From the IMG/VR virus record IMGVR_UViG_3300009618_000004: DNA of 20,000 nucleotides; one strand, 5' to 3'. Source of the DNA: an uncultured virus (IMG/VR IMGVR_UViG_3300009618_000004) (Duplodnaviria; Heunggongvirae; Uroviricota; Caudoviricetes). Positions 2-10,923 of this stretch are shown here, piece after piece. Made by a program: the position numbers and the translations under genes. Positions within the stretch are counted from its first letter, which is position 1. Each line of letters starts with the position of its first letter. The notes under the pieces are model-generated. The model saw only the letters and a program-made list of their open reading frames with translations. It searched no databases and was not told where the DNA came from.

Positions 2-559
2 GCCGCCTACAGGGAGCGCCAATCAACTTTCTGGCGGCTGTGGCTCAGAATCCGGCATGGGAAGGTTGCGCCGCGGCTGGAGTCGCTACACGGCATCCCT
101 GTGGCACAGGCCGACTACCTGCCCGACGGCGGCTTATTCCTGCAGGTGGCTGACCGAGCCCAAGTGGGACTGCCGGCGGCGCCGGGCGTGCCAACCAGTA
201 TGGGACCGCCTGCCGGTATGGAGCAGGCCGCCCAGGATGCTCGGCAGCAGCTCGCGGCTCGGGGTGAGGAGTTTTGGAAGAAGGATCGCATCCAGGCGCT
301 GAACGATGCGATGGACGGCGTGGCGGGGCCGGGCGAGATCCGGCCAACACTGAACGACCTGTCAAGCGGGGGCGGCGCGCGGCCGTCGGCGAGCGATGTG
401 TTGATGAAGGCGATGGAGGACGTGGACGACCTGAACGGCATTGTTGTAGTGCGCGTGCATCGCAACGGCAACGTAGATCTCTGCCTTAACGTAGATCAGT
501 TCGCCGCCCAAGGGGTTCTCCAGAAGGCGCAGCAGTATTTGTTTATGAAGGGGTATTGA
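2..559 (+). CDS. Hypothetical protein, 5'-truncated by the window edge (the frame of ORF 101..559 is open back to base 2)
   Basis: No stop from 2 to TGA 557-559. The stop overlaps the ATG of the next gene (TGATG). Confidence 0.7.
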   Translation, partial: AAYRERQSTFWRLWLRIRHGKVAPRLESLHGIPVAQADYLPDGGLFLQVADRAQVGLPAAPGVPTSMGPPAGMEQAAQDARQQLAARGEEFWKKDRIQALNDAMDGVAGPGEIRPTLNDLSSGGGARPSASDVLMKAMEDVDDLNGIVVVRVHRNGNVDLCLNVDQFAAQGVLQKAQQYLFMKGY

Positions 560-2937
560 TGACGCCCTACTACGAATCCAACGGAGTGACGATCTATCAC
601 GGCGATTGCCGGGAGATATTACCACTACTTGAGTTAGTCCACGCGATAATCTGCGATCCACCTTATGAACTAGGTTTTATGGGAAAAGCATGGGATAAGT
701 CTGGTATTGCCTATGATGTGAAGATGTGGCAAGAGTGCTTGCGTGTACTCAAGCCCGGTGGCCACCTGCTTTCGTTTGGCGGGAGCCGTACCTATCACCG
801 CATGGCCTGCGCGATCGAGGATGCAGGATTCGAGATCCGCGACCAAATCATGTGGCTGTACGGATGCCTGGATGAGCAAACAGAACTTGTGTCTGAGAGT
901 GGAGTCAAGCCGTACCATAAAGCAAAAATAGGTGAGCGCGTATTGTGCTACAATCCAGAGAACGGCGAGTATTCTTACCAGCCAATCATGGAGATTGTCG
1001 AGTATGACTATAGCGATACCGCCTATCGTCTTATCGGAGATTTTGGAGAGCAAGTCGTCTCCAGAAACCATCGCTGCATTGTTGAACGAGGCGGAAGCGA
1101 AGTATTCCAATTTGCCGAAACGATCAGGTCCGAGGCGCGTGTACCCGTTTTGGAAGGTTTGTCAGAATTGCGGCAAGCCCTTTCCAACCTTCAATCGGAC
1201 TCAGGCGGCTCGGAACAAATCGTGCAGCCGAGAGTGCACCAATACACTGATTGGGAAAGGGAACAGCGGTTCGACTTCGCTAAAGAAGAGGAAGGGCAAG
1301 ATAGTTCCCTGTGTGGTGTGTGGGAAAGAGAAATGGGTTCCCTTGGCGTGGTTGAAGAAAATCAAGCAAACAGTGTGCAACTACGAGTGCAATGGAGTTC
1401 TGAGAGGCACAGCGTGGAAACAACACGCATACAAGGGGAGGAAACACTGGAAACCGGAATCGGAGGCTGCGTTGAAGATTCGCATGACGGGTCCGACCAA
1501 TCCAGCATGGAAGGGGGGTCTGACTTATCGGAAGCGCAAGGGAGCGTATGCCGACCAGCCAATAAAGTATGTTCGTTGCCCATCCGAGTTCCTGAGCATG
1601 GCGCGGAAGGATGGCTATGTGATGGAACATCGTCTCCTGGTCGCTCAGGTAATTGGCAGACCTCTCCAGAGAGCCGAAGCTGTTCATCACAGGAATCACA
1701 AAGCGAAGGAGAATCAACTAACCAACCTAATGCTGTTTGCGACGAACGCGGAACACAAGGCATACGAGCATGGCGCGGCCATAAAACCTCTTTGGTGCGG
1801 GTTGTGCCATTCCAATACACCGGAAAGATGTGGTGTCTGCGTGTATCGACAGGAGCCTTCGTCGCAGTCCGTGGCGGCGCAGCTTTCCCGACCGGCAATA
1901 GCGGATTTCCGAAGTCGCTGGACGTGAGCAAGGCGATTGACAAGGCGGCAGGCGCGACGCGGCCTGTCGTGGGCGTCAATACGAATGGCAGCGGTCCCAA
2001 CCTCACCAAACTCGACAATCATGAGGCTGGCGATACTGGCATCGGCTACATGGATGGGAGCGGCAAGGTATTCGATGTGACCGCGCCTGCCACTGTGGAA
2101 GCCAGGCAGTGGCAGGGTTGGGGCACGGCCCTGAAACCCGCTCACGAGCCTATCTGTGTAGCCCGCAAGCCCGTCGAGGGCACGGTCGCGGCCAACGTGC
2201 TCAAGAATGGCACTGGGGCTTTGAACATCGACGGATGCCGTATAGATGCGACCGACGATCTTGTTGAAGATGATGGTCGCAGAGTAGATATGGCGCGTGA
2301 GTCAATTGCGGAAGGATACGATAGACCAAACGCAACAATGTTTCGTACAGGTAAACCAGCGGTTCGTGGTGGTCCATCAAACCAACTTGGCCGCTGGCCT
2401 GCCAATGTCATCCACGACGGCAGCGATGAAGTTCTATCTTGCTTTCCTGAAAGCAAGGGTCAGCAAGGGGATGTTCGTGGTGATGAACCTTCAGGCGTAA
2501 CCGACGAGATATATGGAAAATTCAATGGACGAGTTTCTTCTCCTGCAAGACTTGACTCCAGCTCAGCCGCCCGTTTCTTTTACACCGCCAAGGCTGACAA
2601 AGAAGAGCGCGAGCGCAACTGCTGCGAACTTACCCCCCCCAAAAGGGATGGTTCTCGAAAGGATGGAAACCCTGGTGGTGACAATCCACGAAACCGAGGC
2701 GTTCACGAGCGCATTAACAATCACCCTACCGTCAAGCCTCTGGATTTGATGCGCTATCTCTGCAAGTTGCTTTGTCCGCCGAGCGGGGGAATCCTTCTGG
2801 ACCCATTTATGGGAAGTGGAAGCACGCTGATCGCCGGGCGTGGATTCTATCAACGTTGCATCGGTATCGAACTCGAAGAGAGGTACTGCGAGATTGCGGC
2901 GAAGAGACTGAGCCAACAGGTACTTGGTTTTGAATAG
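559..2937 (+). CDS. Beta-class N6A/N4C DNA methyltransferase (MTase-1) containing an intein
   Basis: IYHGDC, motif IV DPPY, LRVLKPGG, GWGTALKPAHEP, GRWPAN, NNHPTVKP and motif I LLDPFMGSGST. AAGGGG RBS before ATG 559. Confidence 0.95.
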   Translation: MTPYYESNGVTIYHGDCREILPLLELVHAIICDPPYELGFMGKAWDKSGIAYDVKMWQECLRVLKPGGHLLSFGGSRTYHRMACAIEDAGFEIRDQIMWLYGCLDEQTELVSESGVKPYHKAKIGERVLCYNPENGEYSYQPIMEIVEYDYSDTAYRLIGDFGEQVVSRNHRCIVERGGSEVFQFAETIRSEARVPVLEGLSELRQALSNLQSDSGGSEQIVQPRVHQYTDWEREQRFDFAKEEEGQDSSLCGVWEREMGSLGVVEENQANSVQLRVQWSSERHSVETTRIQGEETLETGIGGCVEDSHDGSDQSSMEGGSDLSEAQGSVCRPANKVCSLPIRVPEHGAEGWLCDGTSSPGRSGNWQTSPESRSCSSQESQSEGESTNQPNAVCDERGTQGIRAWRGHKTSLVRVVPFQYTGKMWCLRVSTGAFVAVRGGAAFPTGNSGFPKSLDVSKAIDKAAGATRPVVGVNTNGSGPNLTKLDNHEAGDTGIGYMDGSGKVFDVTAPATVEARQWQGWGTALKPAHEPICVARKPVEGTVAANVLKNGTGALNIDGCRIDATDDLVEDDGRRVDMARESIAEGYDRPNATMFRTGKPAVRGGPSNQLGRWPANVIHDGSDEVLSCFPESKGQQGDVRGDEPSGVTDEIYGKFNGRVSSPARLDSSSAARFFYTAKADKEERERNCCELTPPKRDGSRKDGNPGGDNPRNRGVHERINNHPTVKPLDLMRYLCKLLCPPSGGILLDPFMGSGSTLIAGRGFYQRCIGIELEERYCEIAAKRLSQQVLGFE
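865..1899 (+). mobile_element. Intein (345 aa) in MTase-1
   Basis: Starts CLDEQTELV (block A), has SRNH (block B) and YTGKMWCLRV (block F), and ends FPTGN followed by Ser(+1). Removal restores the WLYG-SGFPKS motif of this MTase family. Confidence 0.92.
932..1927 (+). CDS. HNH homing endonuclease in the +1 frame inside the intein (true start uncertain: 932, 1004, 1112 or 1139)
   Basis: Two Cys clusters (CQNC..CSREC, CVVC..CNYEC), NPAWKGG, and HNH core GYVMEHRLLVAQVIGRPL..EAVHHRNH..ENQLTNL..NAEH. Confidence 0.88.
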   Translation: MSAYCATIQRTASILTSQSWRLSSMTIAIPPIVLSEILESKSSPETIAALLNEAEAKYSNLPKRSGPRRVYPFWKVCQNCGKPFPTFNRTQAARNKSCSRECTNTLIGKGNSGSTSLKKRKGKIVPCVVCGKEKWVPLAWLKKIKQTVCNYECNGVLRGTAWKQHAYKGRKHWKPESEAALKIRMTGPTNPAWKGGLTYRKRKGAYADQPIKYVRCPSEFLSMARKDGYVMEHRLLVAQVIGRPLQRAEAVHHRNHKAKENQLTNLMLFATNAEHKAYEHGAAIKPLWCGLCHSNTPERCGVCVYRQEPSSQSVAAQLSRPAIADFRSRWT

Positions 2938-2941
2938 TAGC

Positions 2942-3181
2942 CTACTCGTCAATAAGGTGCCAGCAATCCGAATGAACAAACCGCTTCCCGCGCGGTGCCA
3001 GATATTTGAGAACCAGATCGTTGCCCACACTTCGATCCCCTTTGAAGATTTGGGAAAGTAATTGCATTGATATTCCGATCTCGTTCGCAAACTGGACCTG
3101 GGTCATTCCACCTTGACGGTCCTTGAGCATCTGGCGTAACTCGCCGGCGGTGTAGGGGGCTGGTGTGGGCTTATTGCTCAT
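2942..3181 (-). CDS. Cro/XRE-like HTH DNA-binding protein
   Basis: MTQVQFANEIGISMQLLSQIFKGDR is a typical HTH. AGGAAG RBS; start 3181 or 3187. Confidence 0.8.
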   Translation of the reverse strand: MSNKPTPAPYTAGELRQMLKDRQGGMTQVQFANEIGISMQLLSQIFKGDRSVGNDLVLKYLAPRGKRFVHSDCWHLIDE

Positions 3182-4031
3182 CGTCATCTTCCTTCTGCGG
3201 TATGCCGTCGAACGCCGCCTGCAGAACTTCGACCTGTTTTTGGAGAGTTTCCCTGATACGCTCAGCGTGTCCCACTCCATACCTCGCCTGGTCGAGAACG
3301 GTTTTTATGTTGGCTTTCCCGTCCATCAACATCCTCACCACCTTGCCGATCTTCTCTGGTTGAGTCCATCCATACGAAATTAATAGTCCAGACTCTTTCT
3401 CATAAGCGTCAACTTTCTCTTTTAATTCTTTGTAGTATTTCTCATATTCGTCCGTTCTTGTGCGAGACACCCCCTGTTTGTATCCCTCATCTCGCGCTGC
3501 GGTTAAAGCCGCAGCATCGGCTTTTGATTGGCGATTACTCACTGCATAAATGAGAGCGGTGAGCATGGTTATGCTCATAGGGAGTGGATCCAACCTAGGA
3601 CACGGCACAACACACTTGAGCCGGTTCTTTTGCGCCACAAACATTCCCCATGATTCTGGCAGTTCGCCGGGTTTAACAATGTCTTTATGGGGAACTACTA
3701 ATCCCCAATGGTGGCAATAGCGAAGGATGGACTCCGCCTTCTCCGGCTGTTTCAATTCCTTGAGCCAGTCGTTGCGTGAGACTTTCATCTCGAATCCCCA
3801 GATTGCCTTGCCCCGGCTCCGGTAAAGACTGATCGCCATAGCGTCCGCTGTTCGCACTCCGTCAAACCCGGTAGCATCCCTCACTTCTTCGAGGGTGATA
3901 TACGCTGGTGCCGTGAAACTTGCCTGAAGGCGAAGGAATAGATCATGAGCCGCGAGCTTGGCTCCCTCTTCCAACTCTTCGTCTGCCACAACTTCCGGTC
4001 CGATCAATTCTTCGTATGCGGGATCGCTCAT
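3171..4031 (-). CDS. PD-(D/E)XK-like protein (MmcB-like phage family) with coiled-coil C-terminus
   Basis: EEV..RTADAMA..WGFEMKVSRNDWLKELKQPEK..ELPESWG. ATGA coupling at 4028-4031. Confidence 0.7.
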   Translation of the reverse strand: MSDPAYEELIGPEVVADEELEEGAKLAAHDLFLRLQASFTAPAYITLEEVRDATGFDGVRTADAMAISLYRSRGKAIWGFEMKVSRNDWLKELKQPEKAESILRYCHHWGLVVPHKDIVKPGELPESWGMFVAQKNRLKCVVPCPRLDPLPMSITMLTALIYAVSNRQSKADAAALTAARDEGYKQGVSRTRTDEYEKYYKELKEKVDAYEKESGLLISYGWTQPEKIGKVVRMLMDGKANIKTVLDQARYGVGHAERIRETLQKQVEVLQAAFDGIPQKEDDDEQ

Positions 4032-9308: not shown

Positions 9309-9502
9309 TGAGCCCTCCGTGGCTCATACTCCACCGCCCGCTCACGCCAGTCTGCGCAATGCGCAATCCGAGCATGTTCCTCGTTGTCTTTCGCTACAAG
9401 TTTCTCCGCCGTCGCCTGTTTCAACTTAAAGCCGACCACCTGCAACGGCCGCCAAGTCCGCCCCGCGTCTTCGCTCCGCTCGATAATCCAGATGGAAGTC
9501 AT
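9305..9502 (-). CDS. Hypothetical protein
   Basis: GAGGTG RBS; TAATG coupling to the MTase-2 C-fragment stop. Confidence 0.65.
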   Translation of the reverse strand: MTSIWIIERSEDAGRTWRPLQVVGFKLKQATAEKLVAKDNEEHARIAHCADWRERAVEYEPRRAQ

Positions 9503-10923
9503 TAGATCACCTCAATCTCATTCAGCAGTGGCGCAGCCTCGCGGATGCGTTTCTCGGCCATTGCTGCATAGACCGGGTTCAACTCGATTCCAATGAACTC
9601 GCGGCCATACCGCAGCGCCACCACGCCGGTTGTACCACTGCCGCTGAAAGGGTCGAGCACCGTGCCCGCCGGTTCAATCGGGCAGTGACAGGACTTTTCG
9701 GCTGGCTTGATGTGCCCATATCCCAACAAGAGGTCCAGCAAATCCGATGGAAGGGGCCGTGCGCCGGAAAGGTCAGTGCGAATGTAATGGGCGAACGCCG
9801 GGCCGCAAAGTGCTGCAATCTTTTCCCGGTTAGGGTGAGTGCGCAGTTGCTCGGCATATTGCCGCTGCTCATACCGTGTGATCGGGCGCGTTCCTTCGTC
9901 GGAACGGCGAGGCCGTGACATGCCAGCGCGTCCGATTTCCAGCGTAGGGTCATCTATCGGCCCTGACCCGGTGGGAGTTTCAATGACCTCGCAACAGTTG
10001 CAACGCTTGCCGGCAGGCGGGCAGCCTGCCAGAATGCACGGCACGATCAACTCTTCAGGGAAGGTGGCGAAGTGGGCTTCCTTGTACGGCTGTGTGGCGA
10101 CGGTCCAGACATCACGCTTGTTGCGGGTCTCCCAAGGCACATCGGCAATCTTCATCAACCCCGCAGCAGTGCGATGCTCCTCGCTGTCGCTGCCCTCATA
10201 TTCAGTCACCAATTTATGCGACTTGTTGCCTGCGGTTCGAGGCTTATTGGACGACCGGCCAAGCTGATGCTCCGCCGTCTTCCCATTGTTGAACTTGTTG
10301 CCTTTGAAACTGCGTGGCTCGCCCCCATGCTGCTGATCTTCTGGCCGTCCGTCTAATTCCCATGCGCCCTTGCTGGTGTATGGACGCCGCGGATCGCAAG
10401 TTGCTGAAGGCTCTTTGATGGCATCGAAATCAAAGTAGTAACGTGGCGACTTGGTTAATAGAAACAGGTACTCGTGGCTCTTGGTGCAGCGATCGGTGAC
10501 GCTCTCCGGCATCGGGTTCGGTTTGGCCCAGATAATGTCCTGGCGCAGATACCAGCCGTCGGCGCGCAGAGCAAAGGCCAGCATCCATGGGATGCCTACT
10601 AGGTCTTTAGGTTTAATTGTTTCATGCCGTCCATCTGAGGGGCGTTTGCTCATTTGAACAGTTCCACCAGATTGAACATAACCTCTTGCTTCAGCGGTTG
10701 CTCGTGCCTTACTGCTTCCGTTTTCTCCTTTTCCTCCCCAATAGGAATCTCCGATATTAAGCCATAAAGTTCCGTCACTCCGCAGAACTCGTCGCACCTC
10801 ACGAAAGACCGCAACCATGCGACAGACGTAGCACTCTCCACACTCCGCCGGCTCAAAAAACTGCTTCAAATCGGCAGGAATTTCATGCTTGCCAACAAGT
10901 ACATCTCGGCCTAGAATCTTCAT
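9502..10923 (-). CDS. DNA methyltransferase MTase-2, C-terminal fragment (lacks motif IV)
   Basis: [62 protein letters not shown], motif [24 protein letters not shown] lies 9 nt before ATG, with an in-frame TAG just upstream. Confidence 0.92.

Follow-up and report, generated by a model that had tools for sequence, protein, structure and literature searches.

A phage DNA methyltransferase intein with a predicted HNH homing endonuclease gene in the overlapping +1 reading frame

The interrupted methyltransferase gene and its two open frames

In a 20,000-nucleotide (nt) stretch of DNA from an uncultured virus of the Caudoviricetes (IMG/VR record IMGVR_UViG_3300009618_000004; this whole stretch is called the window hereafter), a DNA methyltransferase gene is interrupted by a predicted intein, and the DNA of this intein contains, one base out of step, a second open reading frame (ORF) for a predicted HNH homing endonuclease. 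The methyltransferase gene lies on the plus strand at 556..2937 as an ORF of 793 amino acids (aa), in the frame called frame 0 here, and ATG 559, with AAGGGG upstream, is its likely true start. The ORF matches the PHROG DNA methyltransferase family phrog_67 (E 9e-66), and its match to Pfam N6_N4_Mtase (E 1.7e-26) is split into two stretches flanking an insertion of 345 codons at 865..1899 (plus strand, frame 0; junctions ...LYG|CLDEQ and ...PTGN|SGFPKS). The insertion is entered after ...MWLYG, begins with Cys, ends with ...PTGN and is followed by the extein residues SGFPKS, and frame 0 is free of stop codons across all of 865-1899. On the same strand, the +1 frame is open from stop to stop over 932..1927 (331 codons and the stop) and contains the HNH gene. 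This arrangement had been proposed in an earlier sequence-only reading of the window, and both its description of a stop-free methyltransferase frame running through a 345-aa intein and its location of two Cys clusters, a PAWKGG motif and an HNH core in the +1 frame hold.

Conservation and structure modelling support the frame-0 element as an intein with true splicing blocks, in agreement with that reading. Residues C1, H69, C324, T343, G344 and N345 are invariant in the 57 aligned inteins, which are 26-58% identical to the window, and R67 is nearly so. The N-terminal nucleophile would be C1, directly after the extein Gly; a Ser-x-x-His sequence is present as S-R-N-H with the invariant H69, in a region which we take to be block B; and the C-terminal N345 is followed by Ser+1 in the 64 sequences that share this insertion site, one genome locus having Thr+1 instead. 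A profile search of the PDB with the intein alignment found the AceL NrdHF intein (6zgq, E 2.6e-8), and a Foldseek search with the intein model gave 13 matches at E <= 0.001 (best E 3.9e-6), all of them inteins, Hedgehog or BIL domains. The AlphaFold model of the intein alignment has predicted local distance difference test scores (pLDDT) of 87-97, by blocks of ten, over the beta-rich aa 1-110, 89-98 over aa 300-345, and about 40 over aa 116-294. Together with frame-0 wobble and alignment to the intein of mycobacteriophage Lilac (see below), these values delimit an N-terminal Hint lobe at 865..1194, which includes the block-B-like S-R-N-H, and a C-terminal Hint lobe at 1762..1899, with VWC...GAFVA...TGN, the terminal Asn and then Ser+1. 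The part in between at 1210..1746 is a frame-0 read-through linker, stop-free, predicted to be unstructured, apparently free of selection at the amino acid level, and, as described earlier, lacking motifs and rich in S, G, E, Q and R, which make up 54% of aa 116-294.

In this family, Cys1 occurs together with a Cys that is invariant within the VWC motif (aa 324), with Thr at -2 (aa 343) and with Gly at -1 (aa 344). The best sequence and structure match, AceL NrdHF, is a class 3 split intein, and splicing might involve a class-3-like branch.

The proposed functional HNH homing endonuclease is encoded at 1004..1801 on the plus strand and would comprise about 266 aa, with an N-terminal helical segment, two zinc fingers, an NPAWKGG motif and the HNH core. 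Counted from ATG 1004, Cys conservation places zinc finger 1 at C53-C78 (1160..1237) and zinc finger 2 at C103-C129 (1310..1390); the NPAWKGG motif is seen in the translation of 1499..1519, and the catalytic core runs from G-Y-V-M-E-H to H251/E255 (1613..1768). PHROG HNH endonuclease family phrog_20891 matches the window's +1 product over aa 53-272 (E 7e-15), which agrees with the HNH assignment made earlier, and Pfam HNH_3 matches 51 of the 54 aligned +1 proteins (best E 2.3e-11; matched stretch aa 209-250). All 54 proteins, that of the window among them, share H228, H229, N241 and H251, with H209 nearly invariant; the other invariant residues are four zinc-finger Cys (C53 and C56 of finger 1, the latter two in 54/54, and C125 and C129 of finger 2), N-x-x-W-x-G-G and G-Y-V-x-E. 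The AlphaFold model of the product from ATG 1004 has a mean pLDDT of 84.5 and is confident for aa 1-265, with a tail of about 50. The family matches and invariant residues, together with a confident model, identify the +1 product as a two-zinc-finger HNH endonuclease with predicted activity.

The remainder of the +1 ORF, at 1802..1927, is a non-conserved tail over the intein C lobe and 28 nt of extein, with low pLDDT and 5% identity to relatives, and is probably not functional. The stop of the HNH frame 28 nt past the intein end, in the extein, had been noted before; it is a property of the window alone and not a conserved one, since each of the 57 other distinct inteins has its +1 stop inside the intein, at a distance of 17-95 nt from the end and most commonly of 95 nt.

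Selection on frame 0 at the ends and on the +1 frame in the centre

Relatives were collected from IMG/VR by tblastn and a pattern scan with the +1 protein as query, yielding 115 loci, of which 80 are covered by the analysis. With the window and an uncultured 484-kb phage added from a search of a phage collection (L001), this makes 82 sequences compared. Residue-level analyses used 58 non-identical inteins, selected by having both junctions in one open frame, after removal of six identical duplicates; L001 was left out of both protein alignments (A1 and A2), and three loci with +1-frame stops near the N-terminus (L056, L062 and L065) were left out of A1.

In the tblastn matches, L001 and 79 of the 80 viral loci have the HNH shifted by +1 against a methyltransferase frame; in all of these both frames are open over the match and the third is fragmented. 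The identical insertion site with the HNH in +1 is found in 64 of the 82 sequences (junctions G|C[LI][SD]..TE ... TGN|SGFPKS); the remaining 18 consist of three interrupted by contig ends, 14 with an intact YG-SGFPKS and one (L051) with an HNH gene on the opposite strand. Among species-representative genomes, a scan gave 25 loci from bacteria or metagenome-assembled genomes (MAGs), 11 of which have the intein with its +1 HNH. One of these 11 is in a cultured isolate, Plastorhodobacter daqingensis; the others lie on MAG contigs that carry the labels of many phyla and may be phage DNA that was binned with them.

Two variants of the element were seen beside the full-length form. Inteins of 269-285 aa form a shorter subfamily (L042, L052, L057, L059, L061, L067, L068, L081 and others) with an unchanged +1 layout and an HNH of which the zinc-finger part is reduced, finger 2 being noted absent, as was most of the first finger region. 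In L056, L062 and L065, +1 stops lie upstream of or within the first zinc finger with frame 0 open, and these nucleases are possibly decaying toward mini-inteins.

Such a distribution also bears on the explanation that an assembly or sequencing artefact, consisting of two compensating indels, conceals an ordinary intein with an in-frame HNH. Contigs from three other studies agree with the window letter for letter, free of indels, at 938-1871, 903-1204, 1490-1833 and further pieces. The compensating indels which the sequence-only reading had named as a refuting observation appear neither in these contigs nor in dozens of other assemblies. The two-frame layout recurs in the 64 of 82 sequences and the 11 genome loci, from unrelated assemblies, and an artefact would not leave all 58 of 58 inteins without a frame-0 stop. 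A single database sequence, the 801-aa protein P0003, does read from the HNH frame straight into the intein C lobe and C-extein; it results from a sequencing error or from a genuine shift by one base by which the nuclease became fused in frame. It was the one fusion in a search of longer proteins for canonical, in-frame HNH versions, against 628 near-length HNH clusters, although a lack of hits in such a search is in itself weak evidence. Taken together, we regard an artefact as excluded as far as sequence data go.

Selection on the two frames was assessed by the nucleotide entropy of each codon phase over the 58 inteins with 10-codon flanks, in two alignments, one guided by the frame-0 protein and the other by that of the +1 frame. 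In both alignments variability is highest at frame-0 position 3 over 835-1104 and 1780-1914, and at frame-0 position 1, which is +1 position 3, over about 1105-1780. In the centre, the mean amino acid identity to the window amounts to 47% in the +1 frame versus 22% in frame 0, and in the two Hint lobes the mean frame-0 identity is 36-51%. In a permutation test, the synonymous codons of each +1 ORF were shuffled with protein and codon usage kept fixed. None of the 58 inteins contains a frame-0 stop, compared to a mean of 9.5 after permutation, and an open frame 0 arose in 0 of 2000 trials for most loci, its probability being at most 0.04; for the window, the absence of frame-0 stops compares to a permuted mean of 11.3, with frame 0 open in 0 of 2000 trials. 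The third frame served as control and contains 11.8 stops over all inteins versus 11.0 expected (14 versus 11.2 in the window), hence the avoidance of stops is specific to frame 0. Likewise, no frame-0 stop was found within the intein in any of 67 intein-class loci. By wobble phase, identity and permutation, selection is shown to act on frame 0 at the ends and on the +1 frame in the centre, where frame 0 is only kept stop-free; this is the pattern that had been predicted for homologues, with both frames open.

At the N-terminal side the two coding functions meet. Over 1015-1104 all three codon positions are low in variability (0.78, 0.56 and 1.03 bits), and in the dual-coded stretch 1004..1194 on the plus strand, where aa 1-63 of the HNH protein lie over intein aa 47-110, the mean identity is 49% in both frames and pLDDT is 82-98 in +1 and 87-97 in frame 0, both products being predicted to be folded. 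In the models, the folded segments of the two proteins overlap at 1004-1194 (about 190 nt) and at about 1762-1800 (about 40 nt). The earlier statement that some 1 kb is double-coded thus stands as to both frames being open; alignments and models indicate that about 565 nt of this approximately 1 kb is nuclease gene with a merely open frame-0 read-through and does not encode two selected proteins.

A 43-nt stretch at 1055-1097, the most doubly constrained one, also occurs with different flanks on other contigs from wetland and peat metagenomes, at depths 10-30x that of the window's own contig; given these depths and flanks, related inteins appear to be abundant in those habitats.

Initiation, mobility and competing explanations

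Translation of the nuclease likely starts at ATG 1004, as judged from the alignment. A Shine-Dalgarno-like core GGAG at 990..993 (plus strand) lies 10 nt 5' of this codon, the column of which holds ATG in 28 and GTG in 5 of the 58 inteins (33/58), and a start codon occurs within -6 to +4 codons of the column in 46 of the 58. GGAG, GAGG or AGGA is found at -18..-5 in 19 of these 46 loci, versus 13% of background windows of the same inteins (p 2.7e-6), and the Shine-Dalgarno motif is kept where frame-0 residues differ. At 11 loci the +1 frame has a stop codon as close as 1-5 codons upstream of the conserved start. The conserved and confidently folded N-terminal helices of the HNH protein begin right after the Met of ATG 1004 and precede both TTG 1112 and GTG 1139, which makes these two codons unlikely starts. 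Among the three internal starts suggested by the sequence-only reading, ATG 1004 is thus the one with the best support, from its column and the Shine-Dalgarno enrichment, and the other two fall downstream of the conserved, confidently folded N-terminal segment.

The same reading had offered, as an alternative, a frameshift into the +1 frame. Ribosomes would hereby leave the methyltransferase frame by a programmed shift of +1 (or -2) and yield a fusion of N-extein, intein N part and HNH, at a level tied to methyltransferase translation. The +1 frame of the window is indeed open for 24 codons upstream of ATG 1004, and the 12 of 58 inteins without a nearby start at the conserved column would be accommodated by such a mechanism. 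The +1 stops located 1-5 codons upstream of the start in 11 loci, however, leave hardly any room for a shift, the ATG/GTG column and the enriched upstream motif speak for initiation, and the fusion would be devoid of the intein C lobe and unable to splice. We consider frameshifting quite improbable, and internal initiation at ATG 1004 remains the preferred explanation. A sigma-70 promoter scan of 400-3100 found 0 sites versus 2.0 expected and thus lends no support to an internal promoter, with a consensus that may not fit the host, and none of the 18 sequencing runs carrying the stretch is listed as RNA. The runs carrying it are labelled as wetland and peat metagenomes.

Alleles with and without the element were compared. 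A scan with the C-extein gave, as closest relatives, 16 loci with a full-length match, 15 of which have an uninterrupted, intein-less YG-SGFPKS; in one of the intein-less loci (L110) the flanks equal those of the window at 40 of 45 positions on each side. In addition, a metagenome contig joins position 843 to 1906 with 27 other letters between; this match is weak (depth 2.6) and compatible with an intein-less allele in the same habitat.

The presence and absence of the element among close exteins fits mobility, and this counts against the explanation that it is no longer a working homing unit: either a non-splicing, tolerated loop, as proposed for the ShiLan domain of actinophage methylases, or an HNH with another phage role, such as DNA packaging or a restriction-like partnership with the methyltransferase. 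Several facts are in line with that explanation. The same HNH lineage occurs in the +1 frame within non-splicing loops of related methyltransferases (14 of the 82 sequences), the penultimate Gly is unusual for an intein, and the window's HNH is weak against HNH_3 and has lost the usual stop of the family. Against it, C1, H69, N345 and Ser+1 are invariant or nearly so in 57 inteins of only 26-58% identity, which is hard to account for without splicing, and every invariant HNH residue is kept in the window. Loss of the homing function is in our opinion unlikely.

Overall, the element most probably represents a mobile intein within the gene for a beta-class N6/N4 DNA methyltransferase of a phage, with a homing endonuclease that is a separate gene in the +1 frame and not a domain of the intein. 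Upon translation of frame 0, a precursor would be formed that runs from the N-extein through the Hint N lobe, some 180 residues of unstructured linker and the Hint C lobe to the C-extein; the two Hint lobes would associate and splice the methyltransferase together. The linker DNA, one base out of step, would be a complete gene for the two-zinc-finger HNH endonuclease, translated separately by internal initiation behind GGAG. The nuclease would presumably cut intein-less alleles near the ...TACGGA|AGCGGA... junction, after which repair would copy the whole element in. In the simplest history, an intein was there first, and a free HNH gene entered its centre or took the place of it.

A number of observations weigh against this interpretation. 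Splicing, expression and cleavage are all functions that we infer for this element from sequence and models. On the intein side, the penultimate residue is Gly (G344) in 57 of 57 inteins, and not the usual His; inteins lacking a penultimate His are known and can splice. No Pfam or NCBIfam intein family matched frame 0 of the window, and Pfam Intein_splicing matched six of 57 members, the window not among them. The element is instead assigned to the inteins by its profile match, its fold and its invariant residues. On the nuclease side, HNH_3 scores about 16.6-16.8 bits (E 0.006) on the window's +1 product, under the cut-off of 24.8 bits, so that a search of both frames with profile models, proposed earlier as a check, succeeds for the HNH of the relatives and leaves the window itself below threshold. 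The best match among 48,161 chains in a structural search is the HNH homing endonuclease I-HmuI and is weak (Z 4.5, root-mean-square deviation 3.9, 67 residues), Foldseek with the whole HNH model gave no match at E <= 0.001, and a PDB profile search with the HNH alignment returned only zinc-finger noise (E > 0.06). As to initiation, 12 of the 58 inteins have no start within -6 to +4 codons, from which it follows that initiation is not uniform among members; the ATG 1004 column reads ACG in 12 of the 58, several of them among those without a nearby start, and a Shine-Dalgarno core is present upstream in only 41% of the loci with a start. Finally, selecting inteins by their junctions would miss loci with frame-0 stops, and 35 of the 115 relatives are outside the sample.

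Elsewhere in the window, the opposite strand carries a second gene for a DNA methyltransferase at 9502-10923 (473 aa; PHROG phrog_67, E 6e-56). The nearest viral record (G001; 26,774 bases, CheckV completeness 30) contains a single HNH copy.

Known systems, other contexts of the HNH lineage and significance

Inteins with a homing endonuclease in a separate frame have been described from actinobacteriophages by Gosselin, Arsenault and Gogarten (bioRxiv 10.1101/2025.01.02.630785), one of the four types being on the same strand and out of frame. This same-strand type has an endonuclease VII-like nuclease in frame 3 and occurs in genes for DNA polymerase, minor capsid protein, terminase and thymidylate synthase. 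The inteins reported there and the one described here have in common a splicing-competent intein (predicted here), a central endonuclease ORF, an open extein frame, and a proposed origin by invasion of an intein by a free-standing endonuclease gene. In contrast to the systems of that preprint, the nuclease in the window is of the HNH_3 type with two zinc fingers and is in frame 2 (+1), its host gene is a methyltransferase, its carriers are uncultured phages and prophages of other phyla, and its ORF overlaps a folded part of the splicing domain by a predicted 63 or so codons.

The second relevant system is the ShiLan domain, a non-splicing insertion in actinophage DNA methylases with an HNH concealed in frame 3 (Arsenault et al. 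2025, PMC11855218). It shares with the window the methyltransferase family, a zinc-finger HNH in another frame and a stop-free host frame, and the HNH ORF of the ShiLan domain of phage Mantra is 28% identical to the window's HNH over 160 aa (E 8e-8). It differs in that ShiLan has no splicing domain, whereas the window has Hint lobes; in its site, which follows ARKP about 70 residues downstream, whereas the window intein sits at YG|SGFPKS; and in the frame of the HNH, being 3 and not +1. The non-splicing actinophage HNH that the sequence-only reading had mentioned proves to be this domain. The architecture is not unreported, as the preprint (bioRxiv 10.1101/2025.01.02.630785) already contains inteins with out-of-frame endonucleases. 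In Mantra gp64 (L002, 1413-3737), the gene holds an in-frame LAGLIDADG-like insertion near its N-terminus as well as the ShiLan insertion, with the HNH ORF at 2312-3001 in frame 3.

The splicing lobes themselves are shown by sequence comparison to be homologous to those of a same-site intein of actinophage methylases bearing a LAGLIDADG endonuclease. The intein of mycobacteriophage Lilac gp101 has the same insertion site and the same TGN|SGFPKS ending, and its lobes align with those of the window, at E 2e-4 for the N lobe and with 59% identity over 29 aa (E 3e-8) for the C lobe. Its centre is an in-frame LAGLIDADG endonuclease according to Gosselin et al. (2023, PMC9957025); Pfam gave no match to this centre. 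A 2026 preprint describes an out-of-frame endonuclease in a cyanobacterial dnaX intein, with a sporadic distribution, for which a secondary invasion of a mini-intein is proposed. That intein resembles the window's in having its endonuclease in an overlapping frame and differs in its cellular host gene and in being another intein. A full-text literature search, with preprint supplements outside its reach, did not turn up any methyltransferase intein reported to have an endonuclease of the HNH_3 type in the +1 frame. New with respect to the known systems are the nuclease family, the frame, the host gene, the host range and a real overlap with the splicing domain, as predicted.

The HNH lineage was found in further contexts. 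In 14 loci without an intein at YG-SGFPKS (L060, L064, L066, L069, L070, L072, L074, L076-L080, L082 and L083), a shorter HNH homologue lies in the +1 frame, roughly 10-25 codons downstream of that sequence (at about 2900-3500 in each). In most of the 11 inspected among these 14, it is flanked in the host frame by CxC and CxxC motifs, a position suggestive of a zinc-ribbon loop, and this is a non-splicing, ShiLan-like niche and a third site. In L051 (1871-4036), the methyltransferase is on the opposite strand and split into two ORFs with an antisense HNH gene between them; the C-x-C that closes the N piece and the C-x-C-C that opens the C piece look like the two parts of a divided zinc ribbon. 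A quick, unconstrained tree needs five changes of the HNH between intein and non-intein contexts. A tree grouping the 11 non-intein HNHs is at least as likely (log-likelihood +16, p-AU 0.67, 107 columns), and five changes are therefore not required by the data.

The HNH lineage thus occurs within the intein (64 sequences), in the downstream zinc-ribbon loop (14 loci), at the ShiLan site and antisense between methyltransferase halves (L051). A tentative and rather doubtful extension is that the HNH gene is a self-contained mobile cassette, settling wherever the -1 frame is harmlessly readable in this methyltransferase family, with two folded modules over about 63 codons. If true, a protein-splicing domain and the homing enzyme that belongs to it would form a naturally occurring case of overprinting, in which the Hint block-B region and the N-terminal helices of the nuclease would share those codons, and the dosage of the nuclease would be set by an internal ribosome-binding site constrained by intein codons.

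For annotation, the consequence is that standard procedures call either the methyltransferase or the HNH gene and overlook the single mobile unit; the protein database holds the 628 near-length HNH clusters at E <= 1e-10, at least one of which is named just 'HNH endonuclease' (from an Azotobacter genome). The out-of-frame endonuclease layout, reported from actinophages and cyanobacteria, extends to environmental phages and to prophages assigned to many phyla, and provides a quantified example of selection holding a second frame merely open. The intein is in addition a natural mini-intein that would tolerate a linker of about 180 residues, its splicing being predicted, and a cultured carrier exists. 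Finally, the occurrence of one splicing-domain lineage with either an in-frame LAGLIDADG endonuclease or one of the HNH type out of frame supports the view that splicing came first and that endonucleases invade later.

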